Notes: a model not told the origin generated them from the letters alone. DNA of 64,000 nt from Fidelibacterota bacterium (GCA_049975265.1 JBNGDF010000012.1:1513-65512); one strand, 5' to 3'. Positions 542 to 52,997 are shown, counted from the first letter of the stretch. Program-made: numbers and translations.

Positions 542-3500
542 ATGACTGCTCCCCAAAATCTACCCTCTTTTGACCCTGCCCGTGAAGACGGTAATGCAGT
601 CCTGGAGATCATTCCGGATGCTGCTCTCATCATCGGTATCGACGGGAATATCCTGCACTGCAACCAGCGCTTTGAATCACTTACCGGTTACCGGCGATCC
701 GATCTGACCGATTTGCCCCTGGCAGATATTCCGCTGTTTTCCTGCAAAGACCGTCCGATTGTCCTGAAGATGTTCCGGGAGGTGCTGAAAGCAGAACGGG
801 AAGAGACTCTCCGGCTGGACTGGCATCCCCGGGAAGGTTTGCCCTCTACCGGGGAAGTGCAGCTTCGACCCTTCCGGAAAAACGGCGCGGCTACCGCCGT
901 TTTCCTGTTTATAAGGGACCTGAGCATTCCGCCATCAGCCCTGGAGACATTGCAAAAGACCACGACGGATTATCGGCAGATATTTGAAAATATGCGCGAC
1001 GGTTGGGTCATCACCGATCTGAAGAGTGTTATCCGGGAGGTGAACCCTGCTTTCGCCGAAATGACCGGCTATACCCGGACCCAGCTGATGGGTAAAAAAC
1101 TGACTGACATCACCCTCTCCAAATGGCACAAATTTGTAAAGTACGCTGTCGAAGAAGAAGCTCTGATTCACGGTCGCTCCGGAATTTATTACAAAGAAAT
1201 CAGCCGCAAAGACGGATCGGTTCTACCGGTAGAATCCGTCATATTTCTGGAAAGAGATCGCCATAACAGACCCAGAGGCATGTGGAACATGATCAGGGAT
1301 ATTACCGATCGGAAAAACGCCCAGGAGGCGGTGGCGGTCAGCGATTACCTGTACCGCCTGACCCTTTCCAATATCTCGGAAACCGTGTTCGTTACCGACG
1401 ATGCCGGCGACTTCACTTTCATCTGTCCCAGTACGGAAAAGATCTTTGGCTATCCGAAAGATGAGATCGCTGCCCTGGAAAATGTCAGCAATCTGTTCGG
1501 TCGTCAAATCTTCGATCCGGTAAAGCTGCGTTCCGCCGGCGAACTGGTTAACATTGAGCAGCGGATCGGGGATAAATTCGGGCGCCAGCACGACCTGCTG
1601 GTTTCCGTCAAGGCGGTGGTAATCGGTAAAGGGACGACACTCTATACCTGCCGCGATATCACCGACCGGAAAAGGATCGACCGGCTGTGGGCGCTTCATC
1701 GCGAAATCCTTGAAGAGGTAGCCCGGGGTTTATCACCGGGGAAACTGTTTGACCGGATCACAATGAGGATCGATGAGCTGCTGCCCGCCGCGCATTCTGC
1801 CCTTTTTCTTATGATGCCGGACAATCAACATCTTCATCTTGTTTCCGGTCCGCATATTCCGGATAAATGGAAAGAGCGGATGAAAATTCTCAGAATCCAT
1901 AAGGATCATACCTCCTGCACCGCGGCGGTCCAAAGAGCCGAAGCGATATTTGTCAGTGACATTTCAAAAAGTGATCTCTGGAAAAACAGCCGTACCGCTG
2001 CCCGCAAGGCGGGTATCCGCGCCAGCTGGTCACAGCCCATTCTGGCGTCTGATCAAAAACATGTTCAGGGGGTGCTTTCTCTTTACTTTGGTGCCGTTCA
2101 CCAGCCCGATGAATACGAAGGTCAGTTGCTGAAAACGCTGACCGAACTGATTGCGCTGGTGCTTGAGCATCGTCAGAACCAGGAAAAGGTGCAGACGGAA
2201 CGGGAACGACTCTATCAGGTTTTGGACATACTGCCGGGAAGTGTCTGTCTTTTTGGAACCGATCATAAAATCGCCTTTGCCAACCAGCACTTCCGGGATC
2301 AATACGGTTCGGATTTCAGCAAGCCCTGTTTTGAAATTATGCACGCCAAAAGCCAGCCCTGTGCCGACTGCCCCACTTTCCAGGTCTTTGAAACCGGCAA
2401 ATCCCGCATCTATGAGTGGACGCTGAACAATGGTGCCACCTGTCTGGTGCACGATCTGCCCTTCACCGACATCGACGGTTCTCCGCTGGTGCTGGAGTAC
2501 AGCCTGGATATCAGCGACCGGATCAATATGGAGAAATCGCTGCGTGCCAGCGAGGAACAGTTTCGCCTGATCTGGGAAAAATCACCTCTAGGATTGCGAT
2601 TGACGGATGCAGACGGTCAAATTGTCCGGGTCAATGGAGCCTATTGCAAAATGGTCAAAAAAAGCGCCGGTCAGCTCGAAGGACAACCGCTCTCCTGTGT
2701 CTATGAAAAATCCCGGCAGAACCATATTCTCGAAAGCCATCGTCGCCGCTTCAACGGCAGGACCGTTAAACGACACTTTGAAACTGAACTCACCCTTTGG
2801 GACGGTTCCAGGATTTGGCAACGCGTCTCCAACGCCTACTTTCAGTACGGTGATCCGCCCCGGGAACTGCTGCTGGGTATTTTTCAGGACATCAGCGAAC
2901 GTAAAAAAGCCGAGAATATATTGCAGAAAAGCGAAGAACGCTACCGCGCTTTTATTAACGCCACCCGGGATATGGTCTTTATCAAGGATGATGCCTTTCG
3001 CTATGTGGTGGTCAATCGCGCCAACCAGGAGTTTTTCGGAAAACCGGAGGAGGAGATTCTTGGCAAAACCGACTTTGATCTGATGTCGCCCGGGGCTGCC
3101 CGGCGCTGCCGCGAGACCGACAAACAGGCACTGCAATCTGATAACATCGTCAATAGTATTGAAAAAGTAAACGGGAGAATGTACGAAACCCGCAAATTTA
3201 TGGTGCCCATTGGCGACCGCAAAGGGGTTGGTGGCTTTATCCGGGATATTACAGAAAGACGGATCGCCGAAGAAAATCTGCAGTTTCAGGCGATGCTGCT
3301 GGATCGGATTCAAGACGGTATTGTTGCCACCGACCTGGAGGGCAATATTACCTATGCCAATGCGACAGAATTGGAGATTCTGGGAAAATCCCTGGATCAG
3401 GTGGTCGGGACCTCGGTCAGGTCCTTCGGTGGCGATCCCCGGCGGGGCGCCACCCAGGAGGAGATTATTGCCGAAACTCTGAAAAAGGGTTACTGGCGCG

Positions 3501-6305: not shown

Positions 6306-7319
6306 CTAAATACTCCGCCCGACGGCTTTAGCGACCTTTTCCAGCTCCTTCATCAGCTGTGCAAAATGCTCGAAAGTAATCGATTGATAGCCGTCAGAAA
6401 GCGCCTTATCGGGAAAAGGGTGGACCTCAATCATGACGCCGTCCGCACCGGCGGCGATGGCGGCTTTGGACAGGGGGATAATCATATCCCGGCGACCGGA
6501 AGCGTGACTGGGGTCCACCAGAACCGGCAGATGAGACTGCTGTTTCAGTTCCGGAATACTGCTGATATCCAGCGTAAAACGGGTATAGTCGTTAAATGTC
6601 CGGATGCCCCGCTCACACAGCACGACGTTGTAATTTCCGCCGGACATGATGTATTCCGCTGCCAGCAGAAATTCGCTGATCGTAGCGGAAATACCGCGCT
6701 TAAGCAGAATCGGTTTTTTGCAGTGCCCTGCCCGCTTCAGCAGCGAGTAGTTCTGCATGTTGCGCGCTCCGATCTGAACCATATCCACATATTCTTCCAC
6801 CAGATCAAAGCTCTCCGTATCAACGGCTTCGGAGACTACCGGAATGTCAATGAGCTCCCGGGCATCCGCCAGGATTTCAAGCCCCCGTTTTCCCAAACCC
6901 TGGAAGGAGTAGGGTGAGGTGCGTGGTTTGTAGGCGCCGCCTCGCATCAGATCGGCGCCGAGCATTTTCAACAGGCGTCCGCCTTCATTGGTGCCTTCTA
7001 CAGTTTCAACGGCGCAGGAGCCGGCAATGATTGTCAGCTTTTTCCCGCCGATGGCGACCTTTCCGACCTTTACAACCGTATCTTTGGCTTTCATCTCACG
7101 GCTGCCCAGCTTGTAAGGCTTTTTTACATCATCAATATTCTTGACGCCGGGCATTTTGGCGATTTGCTCCCGATCCAGTCCGGCGTGATCACCGGTCACT
7201 CCCATGGTGCCGGTGGAACCCTTGGGAAGATTATGCACATCACCCCCCATTTTTTTTATCAATTCGGTAACCCGTCTGATCTCCTTTTTTGTTGCCGAAT
7301 CGTCCATTGTAATAACCAT
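6306..7319 (-). CDS. 3-deoxy-7-phosphoheptulonate (DAHP) synthase, class I-beta with N-terminal regulatory domain
   Basis: 337 aa with a KDO8PS/DAHPS-like TIM barrel ([11 protein letters not shown]..., GARNMQN, LKRG). The roughly 70-aa N-terminal extension is typical of Tyr/Phe-regulated Thermotoga-type DAHPS. Its stop abuts the aroA start. Confidence 0.8.
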
Positions 7320-12687: not shown

Positions 12688-14055
12688 CTATTTCCCATTT
12701 AGCGGCAGATGATCGAGAGCCGCCCGGATTTTCTCTTCGGGATATTCGTAATCCTCCAGTTTTCCGGACAGGTAGGCGTCGTAAGCCGCCATGTCCACAT
12801 GCCCGTGACCGCTCAAGCCGATCAGGATCGTCTTCGACTCGCCAGCCTCTTTACATTTCAGCGCCTCATCAATGGCGACCCGCACGGCATGGTCGGTTTC
12901 CGGTGCGCAGATGATCCCTTCGTTGCGGGCAAACTGCAGCCCGGCTTCGAAGGTTCCCAGCTGGTGCACCGCGGTGGCTTCCACCAGCCCCAGCTTATGC
13001 AGATGCGTCACAATCGGCGCCATGCCGTGATAGCGCAACCCACCCGCATGTACCGGCGGCGGCATGAATTCATGTCCCAGGGTGAACATTTTCAGCAGCG
13101 GTGTCATACCGGCTTCGTCACCGTAGTCATAAGCGTATAATCCCTTGGTCAGCGTCGGGCAGCTGGTGGGTTCCACATTGATAATCCGCAGGTCCGGTTT
13201 CTTACCGTCCAGTTTGTCCTTTAAAAAGGGCAGATAGAGTCCTGCGGCATTGGAGCCGCCGCCCACGCAGCCGACGATGATATCGGGGTAATCACCGATA
13301 TCTTCCATCATGGTTTTGGTTTCCTGCCCTATAATCGTCTGGTGCAGCAGCACGTGATTCAGCACGCTGCCCAGTGAGTAATGGGTGTCATCCCGGGAAA
13401 CCGCGTCCTCCACCGCCTCGCTGATTGCCAGACCGAGACTGCCGGGGCAATCCGGGTCCTCTGCCAGGATTTTCCGTCCCACCGCCGTTTCATCACTGGG
13501 GCTGGGTATGCAATTGCCGCCCCAGGTCTCCATCATGATACGACGATAGGGCTTCTGGTAAAAGCTGCATTTGACCATATAGACTTTGATTTCCAGCCCG
13601 AACAGCGCTCCGCCAAAGGATAGCGCGCTGCCCCACTGACCGGCGCCGGTCTCGGTGGTGATCCGCTTGATGCCCTCTTTTTTATTGTAATATGCCTGAG
13701 CGACGGCGGTGTTGGGCTTGTGGCTGCCGGGCGGGCTGGTGCCTTCGTACTTGTAATAGATTTTTGCCGGGGTGTCCAGAGCCTTTTCCAGACGCCGGGC
13801 GCGGTAGAGTATCGTCGGACGCCATAGCCTGAATATATCCTGCAGCTCTTCGGGAATCTCAATATAGCGCTCGGAACTCATCTCCTGCCTGATCAGCTCC
13901 ATGGGAAAGAGCGGTGCCAGATCTTCAGGTCCCAGTGGCTGTTTGGTGCCCGGATGCAGTGGCGGCGGCAGCGGCGCCGGCAGGTCTGGCAACACATTAT
14001 ACCAGTGTGTCGGCATTCGTTTTTCGTCCAAAATGTACTTCGTCTGTTCCATCAT
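12688..14055 (-). CDS. trpB: tryptophan synthase beta chain, TrpB2 type
   Basis: 455 aa PLP enzyme with the N-terminal extension typical of TrpB2 ([10 protein letters not shown]..., [16 protein letters not shown]). RBS GGAG. Confidence 0.85.
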
Positions 14056-14097
14056 TCACTCCTCTGTTTAGATTTATGGATTTCCTCTGACTGTCAT

Positions 14098-14132
14098 ATA
14101 ACAAAAATCGCGGGCTTTTTCAGGTCCGCGAT
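14098..14132 (-). terminator. attenuator terminator hairpin in trpB leader (AUCGCGG-loop-CCGCGAU + U5GUU)
   Basis: Minus strand reads AUCGCGGACCUGAAAAAGCCCGCGAUUUUUGUUAUAU, about 45 nt upstream of the trpB start. Near-identical to the tyrA-leader hairpin. Upstream CAGGU...CGAUC can form an alternative antiterminator. Confidence 0.5.
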
Positions 14133-14155
14133 CTATTTTGCTATGGTTTTTTGAC

Positions 14156-14248
14156 TTACTGTCGATGCCCGATCGGCAAACCTGAAAAGATATCTGCCTG
14201 GTGCCACCACCAGTTCCAGGTATTGTTTATTGTCAGGTTCGCTCGCAT
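14156..14248 (-). CDS. Trp-rich leader peptide (30 aa, MRANLTINNTWNWWWHQADIFSGLPIGHRQ) of trpB attenuator
   Basis: Not in the ORF track. Minus-strand ORF with four TGG codons in five consecutive positions (W-N-W-W-W). The stop is followed 25 nt later by a terminator hairpin, then trpB. CCUGG...CCAGG flanks the Trp codons. Confidence 0.55.
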   Translation of the reverse strand: MRANLTINNTWNWWWHQADIFSGLPIGHRQ

Positions 14249-14302
14249 CGGCAGTTAATATAAACCGAAAATCCAAAAACACAAAAGAAAATTTCTTTTT
14301 CA

Positions 14303-14368
14303 AACCTTCGGAAGGTTTTCACAAGCCCCGCTCGTATCAAATCTCTTCCGTCAAAACTTCCGAAGGTT
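14303..14368. promoter_or_regulatory. two copies (one perfect, one degenerate) of 15-bp palindrome AACCTTCGGAAGGTT upstream of secreted-protein gene
   Basis: Perfect 7-1-7 palindrome at 14303-14317. A degenerate copy AACTTCCGAAGGTT lies at 14355-14368, 52 bp away. The same motif family is arrayed at 16650-16790. Confidence 0.45.
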
Positions 14369-14494
14369 GTATAAAGAAAGTCTTGCATTTTTTCGGTTTT
14401 TTTACATATTTCATAAGGAGAAATCGACATAATTATTCCTTCCGGGAAAATTTGCAGGAAAAGGTTTTGTGAATTATTTAACGAGGGGGAGACA

Positions 14495-16543
14495 ATGAAA
14501 AGAACCACGTACATACTATTGGTAGCCGGACTGCTCATCGCAGTGAGCGGGATGGTGATGGGGCAGACAGAGTTGCTGGAAAATGGAGGTTTTGAATCCT
14601 GGGATGACACTTCAACACCAGCTGGCTGGGATCACATTGAAAGTATCACACAAGAAGCAACTGAAGTCAGATCTGGTTCTTATTCGGCAAAGCATGTAGG
14701 AGGAACCAAAGATTTAGGCCAATATATTGCTGTTACTGGAGGAAAATCATATACTGTTACTCTTTGGTATAAGGTAACTGCAGGCGATGGTACTGACGCA
14801 AGAATTTGGTCATATTGGAGAAGTAGCGGTTCTAATCTGGATGATAATGCTAGTGAATTAAGAGGTCCAAATAATTCATATTTTGATAACAATGGTGGTG
14901 TCTGGACACAGTATACCGTTACATTGGATGCTCCGCTTTCCGCGGATGAATTTTATTTTGAGGTTAGAACATATTCTGGTGCTACTGTTTACTGGGATGA
15001 TTTTTCGTTTCTTGAAAATTCAGTATCTTCGGATCCAGAACCAACAAATCATGTCAGCAGCTTTTCAGCAAGTCTAAATGGCTATAGTGCCATTGACCTT
15101 ACCTGGTTAGATAACGATGGGACGGATGTTGCTTTAGGATTTTTAATATTGGCAAACACAAGTGGTTCTTTTACTGATCCAGTTGATGGAACACCTCAAG
15201 CAGATGACACCGATCTTAGCGACGGTTCCGGAGTAAAAAATATTGCCCATGGTGTTCAATCATATACATTTACCGGATTAACTGCAGAAACAACTTACTA
15301 TTTCAAAATTTATCCCTATAGCAATGTGAGTGAAAATATTAATTATAAAACGGAAGGGGATGTTCCAAGTGCAAGCGCCACAACTGAAACACTTCCCAAC
15401 GCCTGGATCAATGAGATCCATTATGATAATGATGGTAGCGATGTAAATGAGGGGGTTGAGATTATCATTGAAAATCCTGGTGATTACACGCTATCGTCTT
15501 TTACTGTCACATTATACAATGGAAATGGCGGAGCGTCTTATGGTTCAGAAACATTAGATAATTTTACCGTAGGAAACTCTCAAGGAGATTTTACAATTTA
15601 TTATAATACTTCAGCATGGGGAAGTGGAATTCAAAATGGAGCTCCAGATGGTCTTGCATTATCCTATCAGGGACATTTAATTCAATTCCTGAGTTATGAA
15701 GGTACATTTACTGCTACCGATGGTCCGGCTAATGGCATTACTTCAACTGATATAGGTGTCAGCCAAAGTGGATCTGATCCTGTTGGTGAAACTCTCCAAC
15801 TCATAGGCGGCGGTACACAATACTCAGATTTCACTTGGGGCAGTTCTACATACCCTGCAACCTGGGGCGCTCCGAATAATGATGGAAGTACCGATCAATC
15901 CCTCCCCGTCGAGCTGAATGGTTTCAATGCCGTTCCTGGCAACGGCGAGGTGACGCTCTCCTGGACCACCGAATCCGAGACGGAAAACCTGGGATTTATC
16001 ATTCAAAGGAGACAGGAAACAACCTGCCTGACTGCGCAGAGCGGTCAGGGAGAATGGAAACTGGTAGCGGACTATACGACCGATGAAACCTTAGCCGGGC
16101 AGGGCAGTACTTCCGAAGCCCATGAATATACATACACCGACGCGCAGGTTGTGCCGGGCGCAACTTATCTCTATCGCCTCGGCGATGTGGATTACAGCGG
16201 TAAGGTTACGTGGCATAAAGAGGTCGAGGTTAAGGTTGAGGTTGAGGATGAGCAGGTGCCAGTGGTTTTCAGCTTAAAACCGGCGTATCCGAATCCCTTT
16301 AATCCGGAAACCACGCTGCGCTTTCAGCTGGGCGAAGCCTCCCATGTTCGGGTTCAGGTGTATGATCTGCTGGGCAACCTGGTGACGACGCTGACCGATG
16401 GGCGCTATCAGGTCGGGCGCTACAACCTGCACTGGAACGGATGCGATGACCGGGGACGCCTGTCCTCCAGCGGAGTCTATTTCATTTATATCAGCAGCAG
16501 CACCGGTTTTACGAGTACGCAAAAGGTTGTCTTTCTGCGCTGA
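14495..16543 (+). CDS. secreted multidomain protein with T9SS C-terminal sorting domain (lamin-tail-like / FN3-like modules)
   Basis: Signal peptide MKRTTYILLVAGLLIAVSGMVMGQ. C-terminal PNPFNPETTLRFQL...VYFIYISS...VVFLR is a T9SS-type CTD. RBS GAGGGGGAG. The N-terminal two thirds are markedly lower in GC than the C-terminus. Confidence 0.7.
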   Translation: MKRTTYILLVAGLLIAVSGMVMGQTELLENGGFESWDDTSTPAGWDHIESITQEATEVRSGSYSAKHVGGTKDLGQYIAVTGGKSYTVTLWYKVTAGDGTDARIWSYWRSSGSNLDDNASELRGPNNSYFDNNGGVWTQYTVTLDAPLSADEFYFEVRTYSGATVYWDDFSFLENSVSSDPEPTNHVSSFSASLNGYSAIDLTWLDNDGTDVALGFLILANTSGSFTDPVDGTPQADDTDLSDGSGVKNIAHGVQSYTFTGLTAETTYYFKIYPYSNVSENINYKTEGDVPSASATTETLPNAWINEIHYDNDGSDVNEGVEIIIENPGDYTLSSFTVTLYNGNGGASYGSETLDNFTVGNSQGDFTIYYNTSAWGSGIQNGAPDGLALSYQGHLIQFLSYEGTFTATDGPANGITSTDIGVSQSGSDPVGETLQLIGGGTQYSDFTWGSSTYPATWGAPNNDGSTDQSLPVELNGFNAVPGNGEVTLSWTTESETENLGFIIQRRQETTCLTAQSGQGEWKLVADYTTDETLAGQGSTSEAHEYTYTDAQVVPGATYLYRLGDVDYSGKVTWHKEVEVKVEVEDEQVPVVFSLKPAYPNPFNPETTLRFQLGEASHVRVQVYDLLGNLVTTLTDGRYQVGRYNLHWNGCDDRGRLSSSGVYFIYISSSTGFTSTQKVVFLR

Positions 16544-16593
16544 TTATTACGCCCGTTAGTCCCCCGGATTTTCGGGGGTGACTATCCACAACG

Positions 16594-16622
16594 CCCCCGG
16601 CTACATCCGGGGGTATTTTTTA
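16594..16622 (+). terminator. rho-independent terminator
   Basis: CCCCCGGCTACATCCGGGGG hairpin followed by TATTTTTTAT. A second GC hairpin (16561-16578) precedes it. Confidence 0.65.
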
Positions 16623-16649
16623 TGATACTAATGATCGTTTGTCCCTGAT

Positions 16650-16790
16650 AACCTTCCGAAGGTTTTTACAAGAATTTTATACCAGTCTGAGCATCTCACT
16701 AAAACCTTCGGAAGGTTATAATAAGAATCCTGTTCTAGTCTGACCATTACACTAAAACCTTCGGAAGGTTTCCGTATCCTGTGACAAAAA
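16650..16790. repeat. three tandem ~53-bp direct repeats each headed by the palindrome AACCTTC(C/G)GAAGGTT
   Basis: Palindromes at 16650, 16703 and 16756 with exact 53-bp spacing. The units share AAGAAT...AGTCTGA...CAT..CACTAA. They lie upstream of the endonuclease I cargo gene. Confidence 0.55.
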
Positions 16791-16857
16791 TCGTTTTATT
16801 CCAACAAAAATCGCCGTAAACTTCACTGTTGACATCTAAGAATATCCAAAGGGACTC

Positions 16858-18732
16858 ATGTCTATTAAAAAATTCCTCTCACTCAGCATCGGCATTCTGC
16901 TGCTTTTTACAATTGCCGCCGAGGCGCAGATACCCGACGGTTACTACGACGCCGCCGACGGCAAAACCGGCTCAGAGCTGAAGGCGGCGCTGAACACCAT
17001 CGTAAACACGGGCTTGAATCGAGTTTCCTATGGCGATTCCAGAAATATCCTGGATAAAACCGATCAAGACCCGGATAATCTTGATAATATCATTTTAGTA
17101 TACCGGGGAACTTCCGTAAGTGGCGACTGGGACGAGGGAACAACATGGAATCGCGAACATGTCTGGCCACAGTCTTTGCTCGGATTAGAAGATTTAAGGA
17201 ATACAGATAAAAATGTCGGAACCGATCTTCATAATTTAAAACCCGCCAATCCCAGCGAAAACAGCAGTCGGAGTAATAAATATTATGACAATCAAACCAC
17301 ATCTGCCAGCTATGCTCCAAGAGATGCCGTAAAAGGCGATCTTGCCAGAATTTTATTTTACATGGTTATTGCTTACGAAACATATCCTCTGGATCTGGAA
17401 CTTGTCAATCACGAACCAAATCTATATCAAATGGCGATGCTTGATGTTCTACTTGAATGGCATGAACAGGACCCTGTGGATTCTTTTGAGGAAAACAGAA
17501 ACGAAATTATCTATAGTTATCAGCACAACCGCAATCCCTTCATTGATCATCCCGAATATGTCGCCCTGATCTGGTCCGAAAATCCACCGCCGCAGCCGCC
17601 ATCCGACCTGGTTGCACTGGATGCTGCGCAAACCTCGCTGCTACTCCGCTGGACCGACAACTCCGCCGAGGAGAATGGCTTTATTATCTATCAGAACAGT
17701 GTCAGGATCGACAGCGTCGCCGCCGATTCCACCAGCTACCAGGTGATAAATCTGCTGCCCGGCACCCTCTACTGCTTCGCCGTCACCGCCTATAATAATT
17801 ACGGCGAATCCGCCGCCGCCGTTCTGGAAGTCACTACCCTGCCCGGCGATTCGAGCCAGACGACCCCCGATTCACTCTTTTTCTCCGAATATATCGAGGG
17901 CAACGGTTTCAATAAAGCCTTGGAAATTTATAACGCATCCGGTCGTTCTGTAAACCTCTCCGGCTATTCCATTCTGGCTAATTCCAACAACAGTCCCTGG
18001 TACCAGACTCATTACAGCTTTCCCGCCGGGGCGGTCCTGGAACCCGGCTCCGTCTGGGTCATCATGAACTCCGGTTTCGATTCGACGTATCACTCAGTCG
18101 CCGACGAGCTGACTTCCGCCACCGTTGTTAATTTCAACGGCAATGATGTCCGCGCTTTGGTAAAATTCAATGCCGCCGATACGACCTTCCTTGATGTGAT
18201 CGGCGTCTATGGCGATACCGCTGAAGTCGCCGCCTGGTCGGTCGCCGGAATCACCGGTGCCACCGAGAATCATACCCTGGTTCGCAAACCATCGGTCAAG
18301 TGTGGCAATCCCGACTGGTACAGCAGCGCCGGAACGGATTCCCTTGATTCCGAATGGCTTGTCTATGCCGGCGACACCTTCGATTTCCTCGGCTATCATA
18401 CTGTTGATACGGTCAGCGCTATCGATATTTGTAATGTGGCGCCTGCCGTCGAATATTTTCGGCTCTACAGCTGCTACCCCAATCCCTTTAACCCCACGAC
18501 GAAAATCCGCTATGATCTCGAAACGATCGCTACCGTGACGCTGCAGATTTTCGATCTGCGCGGAGTCCTGGTCAAGACCCTTGTCCACACCCGGCAGCAA
18601 CCGGGACACTACCGGGTAGCCTGGGACGCCCGGGATCAGCAGCAGCGCAGCGTTCCGGCGGGTGTCTATCTCTACCGGTTGCAGACCGCCGACGGCTTTG
18701 GGCAGACCGGCAAAATGATGTACCTGAAATAA
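16858..18732 (+). CDS. secreted endonuclease I (EndA/Vvn family) fused to FN3, lamin-tail-like and T9SS C-terminal domains
   Basis: Signal peptide. REHVWPQS...NRNPFIDHPEY are endonuclease I motifs. An FN3-like segment (LRWTDNSAEENGFIIYQN) follows. C-terminal YPNPFNPTTKIRYDL...YLYRL is a T9SS CTD. Confidence 0.75.
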   Translation: MSIKKFLSLSIGILLLFTIAAEAQIPDGYYDAADGKTGSELKAALNTIVNTGLNRVSYGDSRNILDKTDQDPDNLDNIILVYRGTSVSGDWDEGTTWNREHVWPQSLLGLEDLRNTDKNVGTDLHNLKPANPSENSSRSNKYYDNQTTSASYAPRDAVKGDLARILFYMVIAYETYPLDLELVNHEPNLYQMAMLDVLLEWHEQDPVDSFEENRNEIIYSYQHNRNPFIDHPEYVALIWSENPPPQPPSDLVALDAAQTSLLLRWTDNSAEENGFIIYQNSVRIDSVAADSTSYQVINLLPGTLYCFAVTAYNNYGESAAAVLEVTTLPGDSSQTTPDSLFFSEYIEGNGFNKALEIYNASGRSVNLSGYSILANSNNSPWYQTHYSFPAGAVLEPGSVWVIMNSGFDSTYHSVADELTSATVVNFNGNDVRALVKFNAADTTFLDVIGVYGDTAEVAAWSVAGITGATENHTLVRKPSVKCGNPDWYSSAGTDSLDSEWLVYAGDTFDFLGYHTVDTVSAIDICNVAPAVEYFRLYSCYPNPFNPTTKIRYDLETIATVTLQIFDLRGVLVKTLVHTRQQPGHYRVAWDARDQQQRSVPAGVYLYRLQTADGFGQTGKMMYLK

Positions 18733-26520: not shown

Positions 26521-26527
26521 GTGATTT

Positions 26528-29410
26528 ATGCGAAAGATTATCGGCGGATTGTGTCTGTTCATGTTTCTGCGGGTCGGGCTAGCGCAGGTTCAGCCGGAGG
26601 AGCAGCTGTTCGTTCCCTGGAATGTTGACTCCATGGGAAATGTCAGCTATACTCTCGATCCGGAGGGGCGGGTCGGACCGCAAAATTTTCGGGTTAATGG
26701 TGACAATGTATATCTGCTGGATCAGCATCAGCGGGTCATTCACCACTATGTTTCGGGGCATTTGGCGGATCGGCTGCCGGTTCCCCGGTCTGCCCGGGAT
26801 TTTATCATTCAACCCGACGGTGAATATGCCTATCTGGCGGATAATGGGATTATTATTTACAGGAATGGAAAGATGGCTGCATCGATTCGGCAGAGCGGAC
26901 CGTTGCCCATTATTCAGAAAATCAAACAGTTTCAAAATGAGATTGTCGCCATTAACCATGACGGCTCGGTATCAAAAATCACCAATCAGCGTCTGTCAAA
27001 AGCCGTTTCACCGGGGATACCCACCTGTGATCTGAAAAAAGAATCCCGGTCCCGGGCAACCGTCACCCTGTTGGATGAAAACGGGGACCGGACGGAAACA
27101 ATCAATCTGGATATTCCCGGTCACAATCTGGGCTCCTTTGGTTTGGTTGGTGTTGACAAATATGATCGCCTTTTTCTGAATTTGGACCTGATTATCCGGG
27201 AGATTCCGCTGAAGGTTCAGCGGGAGGTCTGGATTGTGAAATCATCCGGAGAGCACGCCGGGACAATCACGATTCCGCCCCATTGCTACGCAAAAATGTG
27301 GAACGATTTGCGCCTGGATGAAGACGGAATTCTCTATCATATGCTGTCTTCGGATGACGGGATTCATATTATCAAATGGGATTTATCACGGGAAAATTCC
27401 ACGATATTCGAAGCGGTCTATCCTGAGAAATTTCAACGCTACCTGCACTATAATGAGGCAATTCAGGAAGAATCGCCGGCATTGGAAAAAAAAAGCCCGC
27501 TCAGTAAACTCAGCGCCGTGGTAACTCGCAGCGAGGCGCTGGCGATTGCCGAGACCTATGTGGTGCATGGCTGGACGGCAACAGCGGCGAATATTACAAA
27601 CGGATTAATCACCGATCCCGACGGGGTGGAACTCTGGACGCCGGAATGGGTTCAGTTGGGGACGAACTATAAGGTTCCCTACAAGTGGGGCGGCTTCAAT
27701 ACAATCCCGCAATTCGATCAGGGATTATCGGATGGTAAATCCGCCGGAGACCGGGCGACCAGCGGCGTCAGCAGTTATGCCGTGGGGGTGGACTGCTCCG
27801 GTTTTGTGTCCCGCTGCTGGAAATTGACGTCCCATTATTCGACCCGCAGCATGGATGTCGATGTGAGCTGGGATAATGTCGATGGTCCGATCACAACGTT
27901 ACTTGATTCCTGGGATATTATTAAACCGGGCGACGCCATCCATAAACACGGGCATGTGATCCTGGCGGTGTCCAATTTGGGGGATGGAAGTATACTTGCC
28001 GTGGAAGCGGCGGGCTCAAAGACCGATTGGCGGGTGAATTATACGAATCGCACCTATTCGGAGATTGCCGATTATTCTCCCCGCGAGTATATCAACATGA
28101 TCGGTCCCTATATTCCTATGGCTCAACCAGTATTACTTACTACTATAGATAATGATATCCATGCATCGTTTAGTTGGAATCTTGGCTCTCAGGAAAATAT
28201 CAGCGGCATCCGTGTTGAATATTCGGAAGACGGGGAAAACTGGATCTCATTGCTGGGCGATTCGCTGATTGCAGCGGATATTACGAATGTTGATTATGAG
28301 TGGTCTGACGGTCCCGGGTTTATCCGGGTAAAGTCCATCAATAATGAAGGAGATGCCGACATCGAGAGTCTGCCGTCGGACACCTACGGTTTTTATACTG
28401 CTCCCGTGGCAGATGGGAAAGTATTGATCGTAGATGGTTTTGATCGGAGAGGCAGCTGGAGTTTGCCATATCATGCTTTTGCGCAATGGATGGGTGCCGA
28501 TTTAGCCGCTTTGGGAATTTCTTTTGAGACCGTCGCCAATGAAGCGCTCACCGCCGGGGCGGTCCAACTCTCTGATTACCGGGCGGTTTACTGGATTTTG
28601 GGTGATGAAAGCACGGATGACGAAACTTTTTCCGATGTCGAACAGGATTTGGTTGAGGATTATCTGGAAAACGGCGGTCAGCTCTTTGTCAGCGGATCGG
28701 AGATCGCCTGGGATCTGGATTACGAAGGCAGTGCGGCAGACAAATCATTTTTTCTGCAATATCTCCATGCCGATTATGATAAAGACGATGCGGGAATTTA
28801 CAATGTGATTGGTACCGAGGACGGAATATTTGCCGGTCTGACTTTTGAGTTTGACGATGGCTCCGGTGGGATTTATGAAGAAGATTATCCCGATCAGATT
28901 TCTCCCAAGCTGGGCGCTGCAGCCTGTCTTGAATACTCGTCCGGAAACGCTGCAGCAATTCAATACGAAGGAGCCTTTTTAGATGGCTCGACTCCGGGAA
29001 AACTGGTCTATTTCGGTTTTCCCTGGGAAACCATTACGGATCGCCAGCAACGCAGAACAATATTGAAAATTATCTCCCAGTGGTTCGGTTTTGATTGTAT
29101 GGATACTGCTCCCGATCATCCGCCTTTACCGGCGACCGCGACGCTCAGTCACGGCTACCCCAATCCCTTTAACAGTCGGGTCACTTTCAAACTGATGATA
29201 CCGGGGAATGACCCTTTTGAGGGTTATATTTATAATTCCAGAGGACAGATTGTCCGCAAAATAAACCATTACGGGAATAAACAGAAAGAATATTTACTGA
29301 CCTGGGACGGATGCAATGCTTACGGGCAGAGCGTCGCTTCCGGCTGTTATTTGCTGCAGGTTGTCTGCGGTGATCAGGTTCTCACGGAAAAGATGGTCTT
29401 GCTAAAATAA
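26528..29410 (+). CDS. large secreted protein with papain-like (NlpC/P60/CHAP-like) domain and T9SS C-terminal sorting domain
   Basis: Signal peptide. YKWGGF...GVDCSGFVSRCW...KHGHVILAV is a Cys-His papain-like motif. C-terminal YPNPFNSRVTFKL...YLLQVV...MVLLK is a T9SS CTD. Confidence 0.6.
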   Translation: MRKIIGGLCLFMFLRVGLAQVQPEEQLFVPWNVDSMGNVSYTLDPEGRVGPQNFRVNGDNVYLLDQHQRVIHHYVSGHLADRLPVPRSARDFIIQPDGEYAYLADNGIIIYRNGKMAASIRQSGPLPIIQKIKQFQNEIVAINHDGSVSKITNQRLSKAVSPGIPTCDLKKESRSRATVTLLDENGDRTETINLDIPGHNLGSFGLVGVDKYDRLFLNLDLIIREIPLKVQREVWIVKSSGEHAGTITIPPHCYAKMWNDLRLDEDGILYHMLSSDDGIHIIKWDLSRENSTIFEAVYPEKFQRYLHYNEAIQEESPALEKKSPLSKLSAVVTRSEALAIAETYVVHGWTATAANITNGLITDPDGVELWTPEWVQLGTNYKVPYKWGGFNTIPQFDQGLSDGKSAGDRATSGVSSYAVGVDCSGFVSRCWKLTSHYSTRSMDVDVSWDNVDGPITTLLDSWDIIKPGDAIHKHGHVILAVSNLGDGSILAVEAAGSKTDWRVNYTNRTYSEIADYSPREYINMIGPYIPMAQPVLLTTIDNDIHASFSWNLGSQENISGIRVEYSEDGENWISLLGDSLIAADITNVDYEWSDGPGFIRVKSINNEGDADIESLPSDTYGFYTAPVADGKVLIVDGFDRRGSWSLPYHAFAQWMGADLAALGISFETVANEALTAGAVQLSDYRAVYWILGDESTDDETFSDVEQDLVEDYLENGGQLFVSGSEIAWDLDYEGSAADKSFFLQYLHADYDKDDAGIYNVIGTEDGIFAGLTFEFDDGSGGIYEEDYPDQISPKLGAAACLEYSSGNAAAIQYEGAFLDGSTPGKLVYFGFPWETITDRQQRRTILKIISQWFGFDCMDTAPDHPPLPATATLSHGYPNPFNSRVTFKLMIPGNDPFEGYIYNSRGQIVRKINHYGNKQKEYLLTWDGCNAYGQSVASGCYLLQVVCGDQVLTEKMVLLK

Positions 29411-40432: not shown

Positions 40433-40615
40433 CGGTGGTGAAATTTGCGAATTGAAACGGAGAATATTGTAGAAATAATGTGACCGGAATTACTTTTCAA
40501 ATGGTTCGGTTTCTTTACCTTACACTTAACAAGCATTCGTTTTAGGTGGTCAGGGGGACAGGCAACAGAGGTTGTTTCGGGGGTCGAAACAGCCGAGAGA
40601 GGCGGGTTTAGGCAG

Positions 40616-42388
40616 ATGAGAAAAATGGCAGTGGCGCTTTTAATGGTATTGAATTTTGGTAGTGTTCTTTGGGCGGCGGGAACGGAACCAACAGGCAGTC
40701 CACGGCAGGTATCCACGCGGGAACATCTGCTCTGGATTTGTACGAACAGCTCTTCCTGGGGCGATGACTTTATTCAAACAGCGGACATTGTATTTACACA
40801 GGAAGATTTCGAAAACGGCGGCGCTTTTTATAATGTCGGTGCCGGCTTTTCACCAATCGGCAACAACGGCACCAAATTCACAGGATCGTATGACGGGCAG
40901 GAATTCAGCATCGAGGGATTATTAATAAATCGGACATCTGATTATATCGGGCTGTTCGGCTGGATCAGTGATGCAACTATTCAGAATCTGAGTGTTACCA
41001 GCGTCGATATATCCGGTGGAACCTTTGTCGGCGGGCTGGTTGGTGTCAATACGGTTTCTGCCACAATATCCAATTGTTCCACATCCGGCAGGGTAACCGG
41101 CACCGGTGATTATGTTGGCGGATTGATTGGATATAGCAATGCCATTATTGAAAATTCAAGCAGCGTTTGTCAGGTTATTGGTAATAGTTATATCGGAGGG
41201 CTGGTGGGTAGTAATGACGTGACTGTGAGTCGCTGTTATAGTTGTGGTGAGGTTACTGGAAATCAGCACGCCGGTGGCTTGGTGGGATATAACACATCAA
41301 CCATTGATAACTCTTTTTGTGTTGGAAGTGTAATCCGAGCCAGTGGAAGCACCTCAGAAAGTTTAGGTGATTTCGTTGGGTATAATTATAATGGAGTGGT
41401 GGCATTCTGTTATTCAACGGGTAGTGTCAGTTATAATAGTGCCGAAAATCCAACGGATAAAGGTTTTATCGGCGAGCAGGCTGGATCAGGTAATAGCTAT
41501 GCCAATAATTTCTTCGATAGTACCGCTTCCAACCAGAGCAGCGATGCCGTCGGATCGGCAACTCCCAAAACGACTGTTGAGATGAAAAATGTCAGAACCT
41601 TTACCGATGTGGAATGGAGTTTGGGTTTGTCATTCGCCTGGGACTTTGAAACCAATCCCTATGACGATGAAGCCAATAACAATTATTGGGACCTGGACCT
41701 CGATGGAATCATCAATAACGGCTATCCCTATCTCTCCTGGGAAGATGGCGCGGATGTGTCTCTGCCGGTGGTGTTGGTGAATTTCACTGCGGATCAGAGT
41801 CGTGATGGAGTGGTATTGCGGTGGACGACGGAAAGCGAGATTGAAAACTTGGGTTTCATTATATGTAGAAAGTGCAAAGTGTCTCCAACAGGAGTCCCTG
41901 AGGGGAAAAGTTCAAAATGGGAAGAAATTGCGAGTTATTTGACGGATGCAGCGTTGCAGGGGCAGGGTTCGACGGCGGAAAAACACGATTATCAGTATAT
42001 TGACTTTGCGGTTCAACCGGGAATGACCTATGAATACCGATTAAGCGACGTGGATTTCGGCGGGAAGGTCACCTGGTGCGCCGGGGCAGAGATCAGGATT
42101 AAGGTCGGAGATGCCCCGGTGGCGACAGAATTCGGTTTACAAAAAACCTTTCCCAATCCCTTTAACGCGAACGTGACGCTCTGCTACAACCTTTCCGATA
42201 ACGGTAAGACCAACCTGGCGGTTTACAACCTGCGTGGTCAATTGGTGGCAACCCTTGTCAATGTGGATAAAACGAAAGGTACATATCAGGTGAACTGGCA
42301 GCCGCGGCAGCTGAGTACCGGCATATATATTGTCCGTCTGGAATCGGGTGCCCGAACAACGTACCGGAAGATTGAATATGTAAAATGA
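40616..42388 (+). CDS. secreted GLUG-motif repeat protein with T9SS C-terminal sorting domain
   Basis: Signal peptide. Repeated GGLVG/GGLIGY GLUG-like repeats. A pre-CTD domain (LRWTTESEIENLGFI...YRLSDVDFGGKVTW) is paralogous to the protein at 14495. C-terminal PNPFNANVTLCYNL...YIVRL is a T9SS CTD. Confidence 0.65.
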   Translation: MRKMAVALLMVLNFGSVLWAAGTEPTGSPRQVSTREHLLWICTNSSSWGDDFIQTADIVFTQEDFENGGAFYNVGAGFSPIGNNGTKFTGSYDGQEFSIEGLLINRTSDYIGLFGWISDATIQNLSVTSVDISGGTFVGGLVGVNTVSATISNCSTSGRVTGTGDYVGGLIGYSNAIIENSSSVCQVIGNSYIGGLVGSNDVTVSRCYSCGEVTGNQHAGGLVGYNTSTIDNSFCVGSVIRASGSTSESLGDFVGYNYNGVVAFCYSTGSVSYNSAENPTDKGFIGEQAGSGNSYANNFFDSTASNQSSDAVGSATPKTTVEMKNVRTFTDVEWSLGLSFAWDFETNPYDDEANNNYWDLDLDGIINNGYPYLSWEDGADVSLPVVLVNFTADQSRDGVVLRWTTESEIENLGFIICRKCKVSPTGVPEGKSSKWEEIASYLTDAALQGQGSTAEKHDYQYIDFAVQPGMTYEYRLSDVDFGGKVTWCAGAEIRIKVGDAPVATEFGLQKTFPNPFNANVTLCYNLSDNGKTNLAVYNLRGQLVATLVNVDKTKGTYQVNWQPRQLSTGIYIVRLESGARTTYRKIEYVK

Positions 42389-43506: not shown

Positions 43507-43580
43507 CGGGGCCGACGGGATTCGAACCCGCAACTTCCGGCGTGACAGGCCGGTGCTCTAACCAGTTGAACTACGGCTCC
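43507..43580 (-). tRNA. tRNA-Asp (anticodon GUC)
   Basis: Minus strand reads GGAGCCGTAGTTCAACTGGTTAGAGCACCGGCCTGTCACGCCGGAAGTTGCGGGTTCGAATCCCGTCGGCCCCG. Cloverleaf with a GTC anticodon loop and a TTCGAAT T-loop. A terminator hairpin AAACCCACCTTGGAGGTGGGTTT plus U-tract is downstream (43462-43500). Confidence 0.85.
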
Positions 43581-43675
43581 ATTTTGAAAAATCATTGAGA
43601 ATTTCCGGAGTGATCCTGCTTCGCTGCGCTTCGCAGGACGAGTCCAGCCTCGCAATGCGACGCTGAACGCGCAGA

Positions 43676-43726
43676 CCGGTGCTCTAACCCGATCTATCGG
43701 GAAACTACGGCTCCATTTTCAAAGTC
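43676..43726 (-). pseudogene. degenerate partial duplicate of tRNA-Asp (5' flank + acceptor/D-arm, hairpin inserted in D-loop, anticodon/T arms deleted)
   Basis: TTGAAAATGGAGCCGTAGTT and TTAGAGCACCGG are identical to the intact copy. The rest is replaced or deleted. The downstream hairpin is also duplicated with compensatory changes. Confidence 0.55.
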
Positions 43727-47235: not shown

Positions 47236-47277
47236 TTGCATTTTAAAGTGGCGAATGATATAATTGTATAGACAATT
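47236..47277 (+). promoter_or_regulatory. sigma70-like promoter TTGCAT-17-TATAAT overlapped by 16-bp inverted repeat AATTGTATAGACAATT (GntR-type operator)
   Basis: Exact 17-nt spacer. The palindrome arms AATTGT/ACAATT start inside the -10 box. A twin module lies at 50725-50766. Confidence 0.6.
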
Positions 47278-50724: not shown

Positions 50725-50766
50725 TTGCAGTTTTGAAACTGTTTAAGTATAATTGTATATACAATT
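50725..50766 (+). promoter_or_regulatory. sigma70-like promoter TTGCAG-17-TATAAT overlapped by perfect 16-bp palindrome AATTGTATATACAATT
   Basis: Same architecture as the 47236 module. Immediately upstream of the regulator gene, consistent with autoregulation. Confidence 0.6.
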
Positions 50767-52930: not shown

Positions 52931-52997
52931 AATTTTTTTTGAATATTATTGTCTATTCAATTATATGAATGTATCAATTAAAAAGAAAGGAAGATAG

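Follow-up and report, generated by a model that had tools for sequence, protein, structure and literature searches.

Palindromic repeats upstream of two T9SS cargo genes of a Fidelibacterota bacterium are probably REP-like elements of a family that flanks RAYT genes

Short palindromes lie upstream of two adjacent genes in a 64,000-nucleotide stretch of DNA from a Fidelibacterota bacterium (the window, to which all coordinates refer unless a locus is named), and the question they raise is whether they are binding sites for a regulator of these genes or copies of a mobile repeat. The original prediction leaned towards an array of sites for a dimeric regulator, possibly cargo-specific or T9SS-linked, with a small mobile repeat that delivers promoters as a second reading. 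The palindrome, AACCTTCSGAAGGTT, is 15 bp long and of a 7-1-7 form that is self-palindromic except for its central base. Perfect copies start at 16650, 16703 and 16756, in agreement with the three copies at exact 53-bp spacing predicted before the endonuclease I gene, and at 14303. The pair before the first cargo gene was likewise described correctly as one perfect and one degenerate copy, with the small correction that the copy with one mismatch, AAACTTCCGAAGGTT, starts at 14354 and thus 51 bp after the start of its partner, rather than at 14355 and 52 bp. At up to two mismatches there are five copies in the 64-kb window compared to 0.09 expected, none of 100 shuffles reaches five, and all five are confined to two neighbouring intergenic regions (Table 1); relaxing the search to three mismatches adds only three scattered matches, near the 1.59 expected by chance. 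The palindromes are the largest repeat family of the whole window. Tandem Repeats Finder reports the array at 16650-16771 with a period of 53 bp, 2.3 copies and 81% matches, and its two 38-bp spacers share 71% identity, both containing the AAGAAT, AGTCTGA and CACTAA blocks noted originally.

Table 1. Features of the two repeat sites and the adjoining genes in the window; copies of the palindrome are named REP after the reading preferred in the text.
Feature	Coordinates	Strand	Remarks
Second REPIN-like unit	14292-14379		27-nt inverted arms, 85% complementary; 34-nt loop
REP copy 5' of first cargo gene, AACCTTCGGAAGGTT (central G)	14303-14317		Kept in L014, L202 and L204
REP copy with one mismatch, AAACTTCCGAAGGTT (central C)	14354-14368		Perfect in L202
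T9SS cargo gene 1	14495-16543	+	Pfam: fn3-like, FlgD_ig, Por_Secre_tail
Intrinsic-terminator-like hairpin and T-run of upstream cargo gene	16593-16614	+	Kept in L014, L202-L204 and L206
REPIN-like unit of two inverted REPs	16648-16719		19-bp perfect stem, 34-nt loop, ssDNA fold
REP copy 1, AACCTTCCGAAGGTT (central C)	16650-16664		Orthologous copy in L014, L202, L203 and L204
Spacer 1, 38 bp, loop of REP1-REP2 hairpin	16665-16702		84-87% identity to L201, L202 and L204 spacers
REP copy 2, AACCTTCGGAAGGTT (central G)	16703-16717		Exact reverse complement of copy 1
Spacer 2, 38 bp, apparent diverged duplicate of spacer 1	16718-16755		71% identity to spacer 1
REP copy 3, AACCTTCGGAAGGTT (central G)	16756-16770		Aligns to right half of L014 single copy
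Promoter-proximal block (CTGTGACAAAAATCGTTTTAT...), between array and endonuclease gene	16777-16813	+	Also in repeat-free ortholog
T9SS cargo gene 2	16858-18732	+	Pfam: Endonuclease_1, fn3, LTD, T9SS C-terminal domain

A feature that was overlooked originally is the central base, which is C in one and G in the other of neighbouring copies, such that neighbouring copies are exact reverse complements. The arms of the first inverted pair (16648-16666 and 16701-16719) are 19 nt long and 100% complementary, and the region 16640-16780 has a predicted single-stranded DNA fold with a minimum free energy of -24.8 kcal/mol (z = -6.7 versus shuffles). At the site before the first cargo gene the arms are at 14292-14318 and 14353-14379, and the predicted fold of this unit has z = -4.45 versus shuffles. 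The orientation of the copies in the 16650 array can be read from the central base alone and is C, G, G, with no strict alternation. None of the hairpins in the window has a T-run on its 3' side, and they are thus not classic terminators. Neither the window copies nor the doublets found in public genomes (see below) have a GTAG or GTGG foot beside them; this rules out the canonical REP class only, because the repeats of RAYT subclasses 2.6 and 3 also lack the foot (PMC6006769).

Two other accounts of the arrangement were rejected. A CRISPR array does not fit a 15-bp repeat in three copies with spacers that are 71% alike and no cas-like neighbours. Tandem duplication of the two cargo genes together with their upstream regions is not supported because the sequences 3' of the REP pairs are unrelated, and it is also contradicted by the central-base isomers, which are G then C at one site and C then G at the other. 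Identity between the spacers of the two sites is 55-66%, compared to 52 +/- 6% for shuffled sequences, which is too weak to claim homology. No paper emerged when the literature was searched for the exact 15-mer.

The Pfam domains of both downstream genes agree with their predicted role as T9SS cargo, and the product of the second is 100% identical to an NCBI protein of a Fidelibacterota MAG. The array begins 36 bp after the terminator-like hairpin of the upstream cargo gene and lies 88-208 nt upstream of the endonuclease start codon. A simple scan for sigma-70 promoters and terminators gave promoter-like sites at chance level. The genes neighbouring the locus encode a PALP enzyme and a homocysteine S-methyltransferase, and none encodes a regulator. 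We note that a promoter-proximal motif, ACAAAAATCG, occurs in the PALP/cargo-gene intergenic region (14094-14110) and twice before the endonuclease gene (16777-16793 and 16797-16813), and is kept in relatives, including the repeat-free ortholog.

Several other features of the window deserve mention in their own right. Comparison of cargo gene 1 with its orthologs (L014:3601-5763, L202:1303-3729 and L204:2067-3728) reveals a mosaic: the signal peptide and the last ~220 aa are kept among the relatives (67-85%), and the central passenger part is non-homologous or shares ~30% identity between them, with a G+C content in the central part of 37-41% versus 53-56%. This pattern suggests repeated exchange of the passenger domain. 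The mosaic borders follow the signal peptide and precede the last ~220 aa; REPs as the borders of the swapped part were rejected since these borders are inside the gene. A palindromic 19-mer, TATAATTGTATAGACAATT (core AATTGT-N4-ACAATT), is present at 47259-47277, 50748-50766 and 52944-52962, in three consecutive intergenic regions within a cluster of genes on one strand, and is a better operator or promoter candidate than the AACCTTCSGAAGGTT palindromes. Finally, the 21-mer AACTACGGCTCCATTTTGAAA occurs twice, 134 bp apart (43569-43589 and 43703-43723), with the first copy overlapping the 5' end of a tRNA gene (43507-43580, minus strand), and the duplicate may be an integration-site remnant or a duplicated promoter.

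Orthologous loci were obtained by a genome scan (L014, with ~85-90% DNA identity) and by protein lookup (L201-L204). The number of REP copies 5' of the endonuclease gene is one in L014, two each in L202, L203 and L204 (52-53 bp apart), three in the window, and at least one in L201, whose contig begins inside the spacer; the window and L014 differ at this site by a 106-bp indel. As judged from sequence identity, spacer 1 is the ortholog of the single spacer of the relatives and spacer 2 a diverged duplicate of spacer 1, with spacer 2 sharing 63-68% identity with the relatives' spacers compared to 52 +/- 6% for shuffled sequences; the spacer of L203 is unrelated to the others. The extra unit containing spacer 2 was not found in any relative examined. 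The window, L014, L202 and L204 all have the REP pair 5' of the first cargo gene, with the 15-mers kept and the spacer drifting; the AAACTTCCGAAGGTT site is perfect in L202, has the same mismatch in L204 and is more degenerate in L014. Overall, the relatives that retain the repeat have proteins 67-88% identical to those of the window, keep the 51-53 bp spacing, and have diverging spacers. The pattern in this Fidelibacterota/Marinimicrobia subclade is thus one REP pair 5' of the first cargo gene and a second between the terminator and the promoter-proximal block.

In contrast, L206 and L207, which have the same gene order with 55% protein identity, have no copy even at three mismatches, although both terminator hairpins and the block GTGACAAAAATCGTTTTAT preceding the gene are retained. 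We conclude that the repeat was inserted, in the window's clade alone, between a terminator and a promoter-proximal block that was already present, and that the number of copies at the endonuclease site was altered after insertion, to give one, two or three REPs in close relatives. Comparison of orthologous intergenic regions, which had been proposed together with the original prediction, thus gives a divided answer, with one to three copies in close relatives and none in the more distant L206 and L207.

To place the palindrome in a broader context, GTDB was scanned for the exact 15-mer using one genome per species, and at least 120 loci were found. Among the loci listed, at least 55 have another copy no more than 80 nt away, and in about 42 of these the spacing is 17-19 nt. 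The common doublet is AACCTTCCGAAGGTT-nnn-AACCTTCGGAAGGTT, a hairpin with a 15-bp stem and a 3-nt loop, and 24 of the 25 exact doublets listed have complementary central bases (C/G). This complementarity constrains the pairing of one copy with another, and would be unnecessary for the binding of a protein. A further 65 of the loci listed are single matches, many of them inside long ORFs, where they are probably due to chance. The hosts are MAGs labelled Kapaibacterium, Ignavibacteria, Melioribacteraceae, Saprospiraceae, Chitinophagaceae, Neomarinimicrobiota, Fidelibacterota, Anaerolineae and Poribacteria, among others, and the identical 15-mer is thereby seen in Ignavibacteriota/Kapabacteria, Bacteroidota, Marinimicrobia/Fidelibacterota, Chloroflexota and Poribacteria, with the caution that some MAG labels may be unreliable. 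Among the matches listed there are at least seven loci in CAZOAL01 and at least four in OW818654.1, compared to five copies at two loci in the window. Where doublets were classified across the public loci listed, 29 of 44 are intergenic.

The pairing distance differs among lineages, being 41-42 bp in the Anaerolineae MAG CHL7 (L002, L011 and L096), which corresponds to a 26-nt loop, and 66 bp in Chitinophagaceae (L082 and L108); the loop of the inverted pair thus varies by lineage and the core is identical. In 6 of the 29 intergenic cases (L003, L010, L012, L021, L039 and L077) the doublet lies 8-10 bp after a stop codon. We also note that the REP, single or as the 18-bp doublet, is found in frame within T9SS C-terminal sorting domains in several MAGs, where it reads (K/E/Q)PSEGxxPSEG (L029:3264-3296, L031:2367-2399, L047:6748-6780, L059:1490-1522, L067:2982-3014, and L094 at 1307-1339, 3002-3034 and 7121-7135). 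The insert is always between the 'YPNPAxDYIEI' and 'VRIYNxLGE' strands, ~50-60 aa from the C-terminus, and by eye, with no quantification, the DNA palindrome seems better kept at these sites than the surrounding codons. Inheritance with duplicated domains, targeted insertion or gene conversion could account for these inserts. The repeat is also in frame within a histidine-kinase ATPase domain (L026:381-413).

RAYTs are REP-associated Y1/HUH transposases of the IS200 superfamily, and several of the public loci contain such a gene next to the palindrome. In L030, a Kapaibacterium MAG, three doublets are located within 900 bp around an ORF (286-900), one upstream, one at the 3' end and one in frame inside it. 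The ORF matches Pfam Y1_Tnp with 25.3 bits, above the cut-off of 23, and contains the motifs THFHF and YIHQNPIRSGLV; among the RAYTs described here the HuH motif is seen as THFHF and the Tyr motif as YIHQNP. It also matches the NCBIfam model REP_Tyr_transpos (REP-associated tyrosine transposase) with E = 2.8e-15, which is below the equivalog cut-off, the RAYT matches to this model having 54-62 bits compared to a cut-off of 80. Among solved structures, E. coli TnpArep (4er8) is the closest match in sequence; the match is weak (E = 0.24), and is supportive rather than decisive. L086, a Melioribacteraceae MAG, encodes a homologue with 64% identity, whose gene is preceded by a REP at a distance of 118 bp and followed, directly past the stop codon, by a degenerate doublet. 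A metagenome scan using the L030 and L086 proteins as queries gave 80 homologous loci, and the JGI name for members of this protein family is 'REP element-mobilizing transposase RayT'. In L122 and L123, which are among the loci with the closest homologues, the 15-mer flanks the RAYT gene on either side; in L123 the flanking elements are two identical 43-bp doublets, and two further doublets are nearby. There are thus four independent loci (L030, L086, L122 and L123) in which AACCTTCSGAAGGTT REPs are present on both sides of a RAYT gene, and the repeat is the family that flanks RAYT genes in Ignavibacteriota/Kapabacteria. More distant homologues have different palindromic doublets of their own, such as CAGACATCGGATGTTT-nnn-AAACATCCGATGTCT in L126, L128 and L129. 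The alternative offered originally, a small mobile repeat that delivers promoters, is supported in its first part. Its second part finds no support, since the conserved promoter-proximal block is separate from the repeat and is present without it.

The REP is also found within the RAYT genes themselves, read in frame as PSEG in 14 of the 120 best homologues and usually located between the HuH and Tyr motifs. In some RAYTs the in-frame PSEG is near the C-terminus, and carriers include P0130, P0136, P0141, P0146, P0149, P0151 and P0152. The L086 RAYT has another hairpin-forming insert, AGATGTGCCAC...GTGGCACATCT, in frame (L086:2130-2175, minus strand) at the position of the PSEG of L030. Searches of the 64-kb window by tblastn and with a profile HMM of the 120 homologues found no RAYT, and none of these best 120 homologues is labelled Marinimicrobia or Fidelibacterota. 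A role for a cognate RAYT in the source lineage is thus only putative.

We consider it likely that the palindromes in the window are REP copies arranged as REPIN-like inverted pairs with a loop of ~36-38 nt, and that the second site is a small BIME-like cluster of tandem REPs in which recombination between copies alters their number. REP traits include the stem-loop palindrome, the inverted doublets and, in other lineages, the flanking of RAYT genes (L030, L086, L122 and L123); the BIME-like trait is the presence of three REPs with related 38-bp linkers, and of one to three copies at the orthologous site. Points that run against this reading are the lack of a RAYT in the window and among Marinimicrobia- or Fidelibacterota-labelled proteins of the best 120 homologues, the RAYT matches below the NCBIfam equivalog cut-off, the weak match to E. 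coli TnpArep and the missing GT[AG]G foot. In addition, copies in the window's clade are 51-53 bp apart rather than forming the common 18-bp doublet, and their 15-mers are perfectly kept as the spacers drift. By analogy with known RAYT/REPIN systems, a RAYT would recognise the folded single-stranded hairpin and would cut and rejoin it, such that the element could spread into extragenic DNA; recombination or slippage between identical 15-mers would then alter the copy number at the second site. The likeliest local effect would be that of a generic stable extragenic hairpin, putatively serving as a backup terminator, an insulator or a protector of mRNA 3' ends, and it would not be sequence-specific control of T9SS cargo.

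The strong predicted folding and the position of the array before the endonuclease start codon could also be read as an RNA element, in which the transcribed array would act on the endonuclease gene as a structured 5' leader or as a small RNA, although we regard this as extremely improbable. Rfam 15 at gathering thresholds matches nothing in the window other than a tRNA elsewhere, and permissive E-values applied to 14050-16900 yield chance-level matches only (E = 0.4-0.75). Moreover, the array is absent from L206 and L207, is reduced to a single 15-mer in L014, and its palindrome recurs elsewhere, both flanking RAYT genes on either side and in otherwise unrelated settings.

The window encodes four sorting-domain proteins and the repeat is present at two adjacent genes only, with no copy upstream of the cargo genes at 26525-29407 and 40484-42385. 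Five other Marinimicrobia/Fidelibacterota loci were examined, all with the 18-bp doublet except L101, which has a single copy 78 bp after cdaA; the doublets are 8 bp past the stop codon of a cargo gene (L010), downstream of a nitroreductase gene (L092), near an IS110 transposase (L107), and near nitroreductase and TonB-receptor genes (L097). Association with sorting-domain genes, a check proposed with the original prediction, is thus seen for two of the four in the window and for one of the five loci elsewhere, there after the stop codon, and the distribution of the repeat is REP-like with no regulon. A T9SS-linked or cargo-specific regulator is not supported, given the two repeat-free cargo genes and the unrelated neighbours in other Marinimicrobia. 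An operator array in the strict sense, in which a dimeric transcription factor would bind duplex sites and co-regulate the two cargo genes, with the roughly five-turn spacing allowing cooperative binding, is in our view very unlikely. Although the perfect dyad symmetry, the location upstream of two adjacent cargo genes, and the retention of both 15-mers and 51-53 bp spacing at 67-88% protein identity while spacers diverge would suit such an array, the same 15-mer flanks RAYT genes on both sides and forms 18-bp hairpin doublets in several phyla, and copies are found after stop codons, beside unrelated genes and even inside ORFs. The variation between one and three copies at a single site, the absence of the repeat from syntenic orthologs that keep the promoter-proximal block, the pairing of central bases and the lack of a regulator gene beside the locus likewise argue against it, and the original reading as a dimeric-regulator array is not sustained.

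Retention of the 15-mers while the spacers drift would also fit selection for a host function, which makes an exapted or relic REP the main rival, and a pure operator unlikely. According to this alternative, the elements have a REP/REPIN origin, are immobile in a phylum without a cognate RAYT, and are kept as host cis-elements; candidate roles are an insulator or backup terminator between cargo genes, an mRNA 3'-end stabiliser, or a site for a nucleoid protein or gyrase as in E. coli BIMEs. We view it as possible, if somewhat unlikely. It would account for the lack of a RAYT in the window and of Marinimicrobia-labelled proteins among the best 120 homologues, for 15-mers that are perfect in four to five diverged relatives compared to spacers diverged by 13-45%, and for the start of the array 36 bp after a terminator-like hairpin; in addition, REPs are reported to have roles in termination, mRNA stability, supercoiling and IHF recruitment (PMC3733652, PMC3479197). 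However, the presence of one to three copies at the site and of none in the syntenic ortholog speaks against a strict requirement, the hairpins in the window lack a T-run on their 3' side, and persistence at orthologous sites is also reported for active REPIN populations.

A more far-reaching proposal, which we offer tentatively and think unlikely, is that one REPIN population with an identical 15-bp core has spread horizontally across at least five phyla and been adopted by its hosts, both as a PSEG loop kept in frame at one fixed position of T9SS sorting domains in some lineages and, in the window's clade, as a selected cis-element of cargo loci with no local RAYT. If true, a single REPIN population across phyla would imply horizontal RAYT/REPIN spread, against the usual view of vertical inheritance.

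Recognition of the palindromes as probable REPs removes a false lead, in that they provide no evidence for a regulator of T9SS cargo. REP/REPIN systems are poorly described in the FCB group and neighbouring phyla, and one such family is documented here together with its RAYT clade; the core of the repeat has no GTAG foot, and the loop length depends on lineage (3, 26 or 36-38 nt). In Fidelibacterota MAGs the repeat can readily be used to type strains and to find recombination hot spots. Assembly breaks and errors in gene calling are likely to arise from it as well, examples being ORFs that continue across doublets and the PSEG insertions of T9SS sorting domains.

Several known systems invite comparison. 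Bacterial interspersed mosaic elements (BIMEs) are tandem clusters of REPs with short related linkers and strain-variable copy number, those of E. coli reportedly having been described by Gilson, Bachellier and Hofnung. The tandem REP cluster of the window, with its related linkers and variable copy number, is similar, but consists of three REPs with one linker type and has no strict alternation (C, G, G). Rickettsia palindromic elements (RPEs), reportedly described by Ogata et al. in 2000, are 100-150 bp long, and we know of no RAYT associated with them. The likeness lies in a palindromic repeat that is tolerated in frame, here as PSEG in T9SS sorting domains, a histidine kinase and RAYTs, although the copies in the window are all extragenic.

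Work by Nunvar in 2010 and by Ton-Hoang in 2012 is said to concern REP/REPIN-RAYT systems. Such systems are reported from E. coli and Pseudomonas fluorescens (Bertels and Rainey 2011, PMC3116915, PMC3337134). In these, a hairpin repeat is located on either side of one transposase-like gene (PMC6006769, PMC3337134, PMC3116915), and each RAYT clade is paired with its own REP family (PMC6006769, PMC3337134). The family reported here is alike in its short extragenic palindromes, inverted hairpin doublets, and repeats around a single RAYT gene, in having a separate REP for each RAYT clade, and in persisting at orthologous sites with differences in presence and copy number. It differs in that the AACCTTCSGAAGGTT REP is self-palindromic apart from the central base and has no GT[AG]G foot, in that the usual doublet loop is 3 nt compared to 36-38 nt in the window's clade and 26 nt in the Anaerolineae MAG, and in that an identical 15-bp core is present in several phyla with no RAYT in the 64-kb window. 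TnpA_REP subclass 2.6, from Bacteroidetes, has the Tyr motif YIH[QN]NP, a length of ~180 aa and atypical flanks without GT[AG]G, and in subclass 2.4 REPs are inserted in frame between the HuH and Tyr motifs (Quentin et al. 2018, PMC6006769). The RAYT clade described here is similar to subclass 2.6 in Tyr motif and length and to subclass 2.4 in its in-frame REPs, and fits neither exactly, with THFH rather than NH[LIV]H as HuH motif and FQ at the 'WQ' position; on motifs alone, subclasses 2.6, 2.4 and 2.1 are all candidates. Finally, the array resembles the operator arrays of transcription factors in its dyad symmetry and its helical-phase spacing upstream of genes, but its distribution, association with RAYT genes, copy-copy pairing and copy-number variation set it apart and point to a mobile hairpin repeat.
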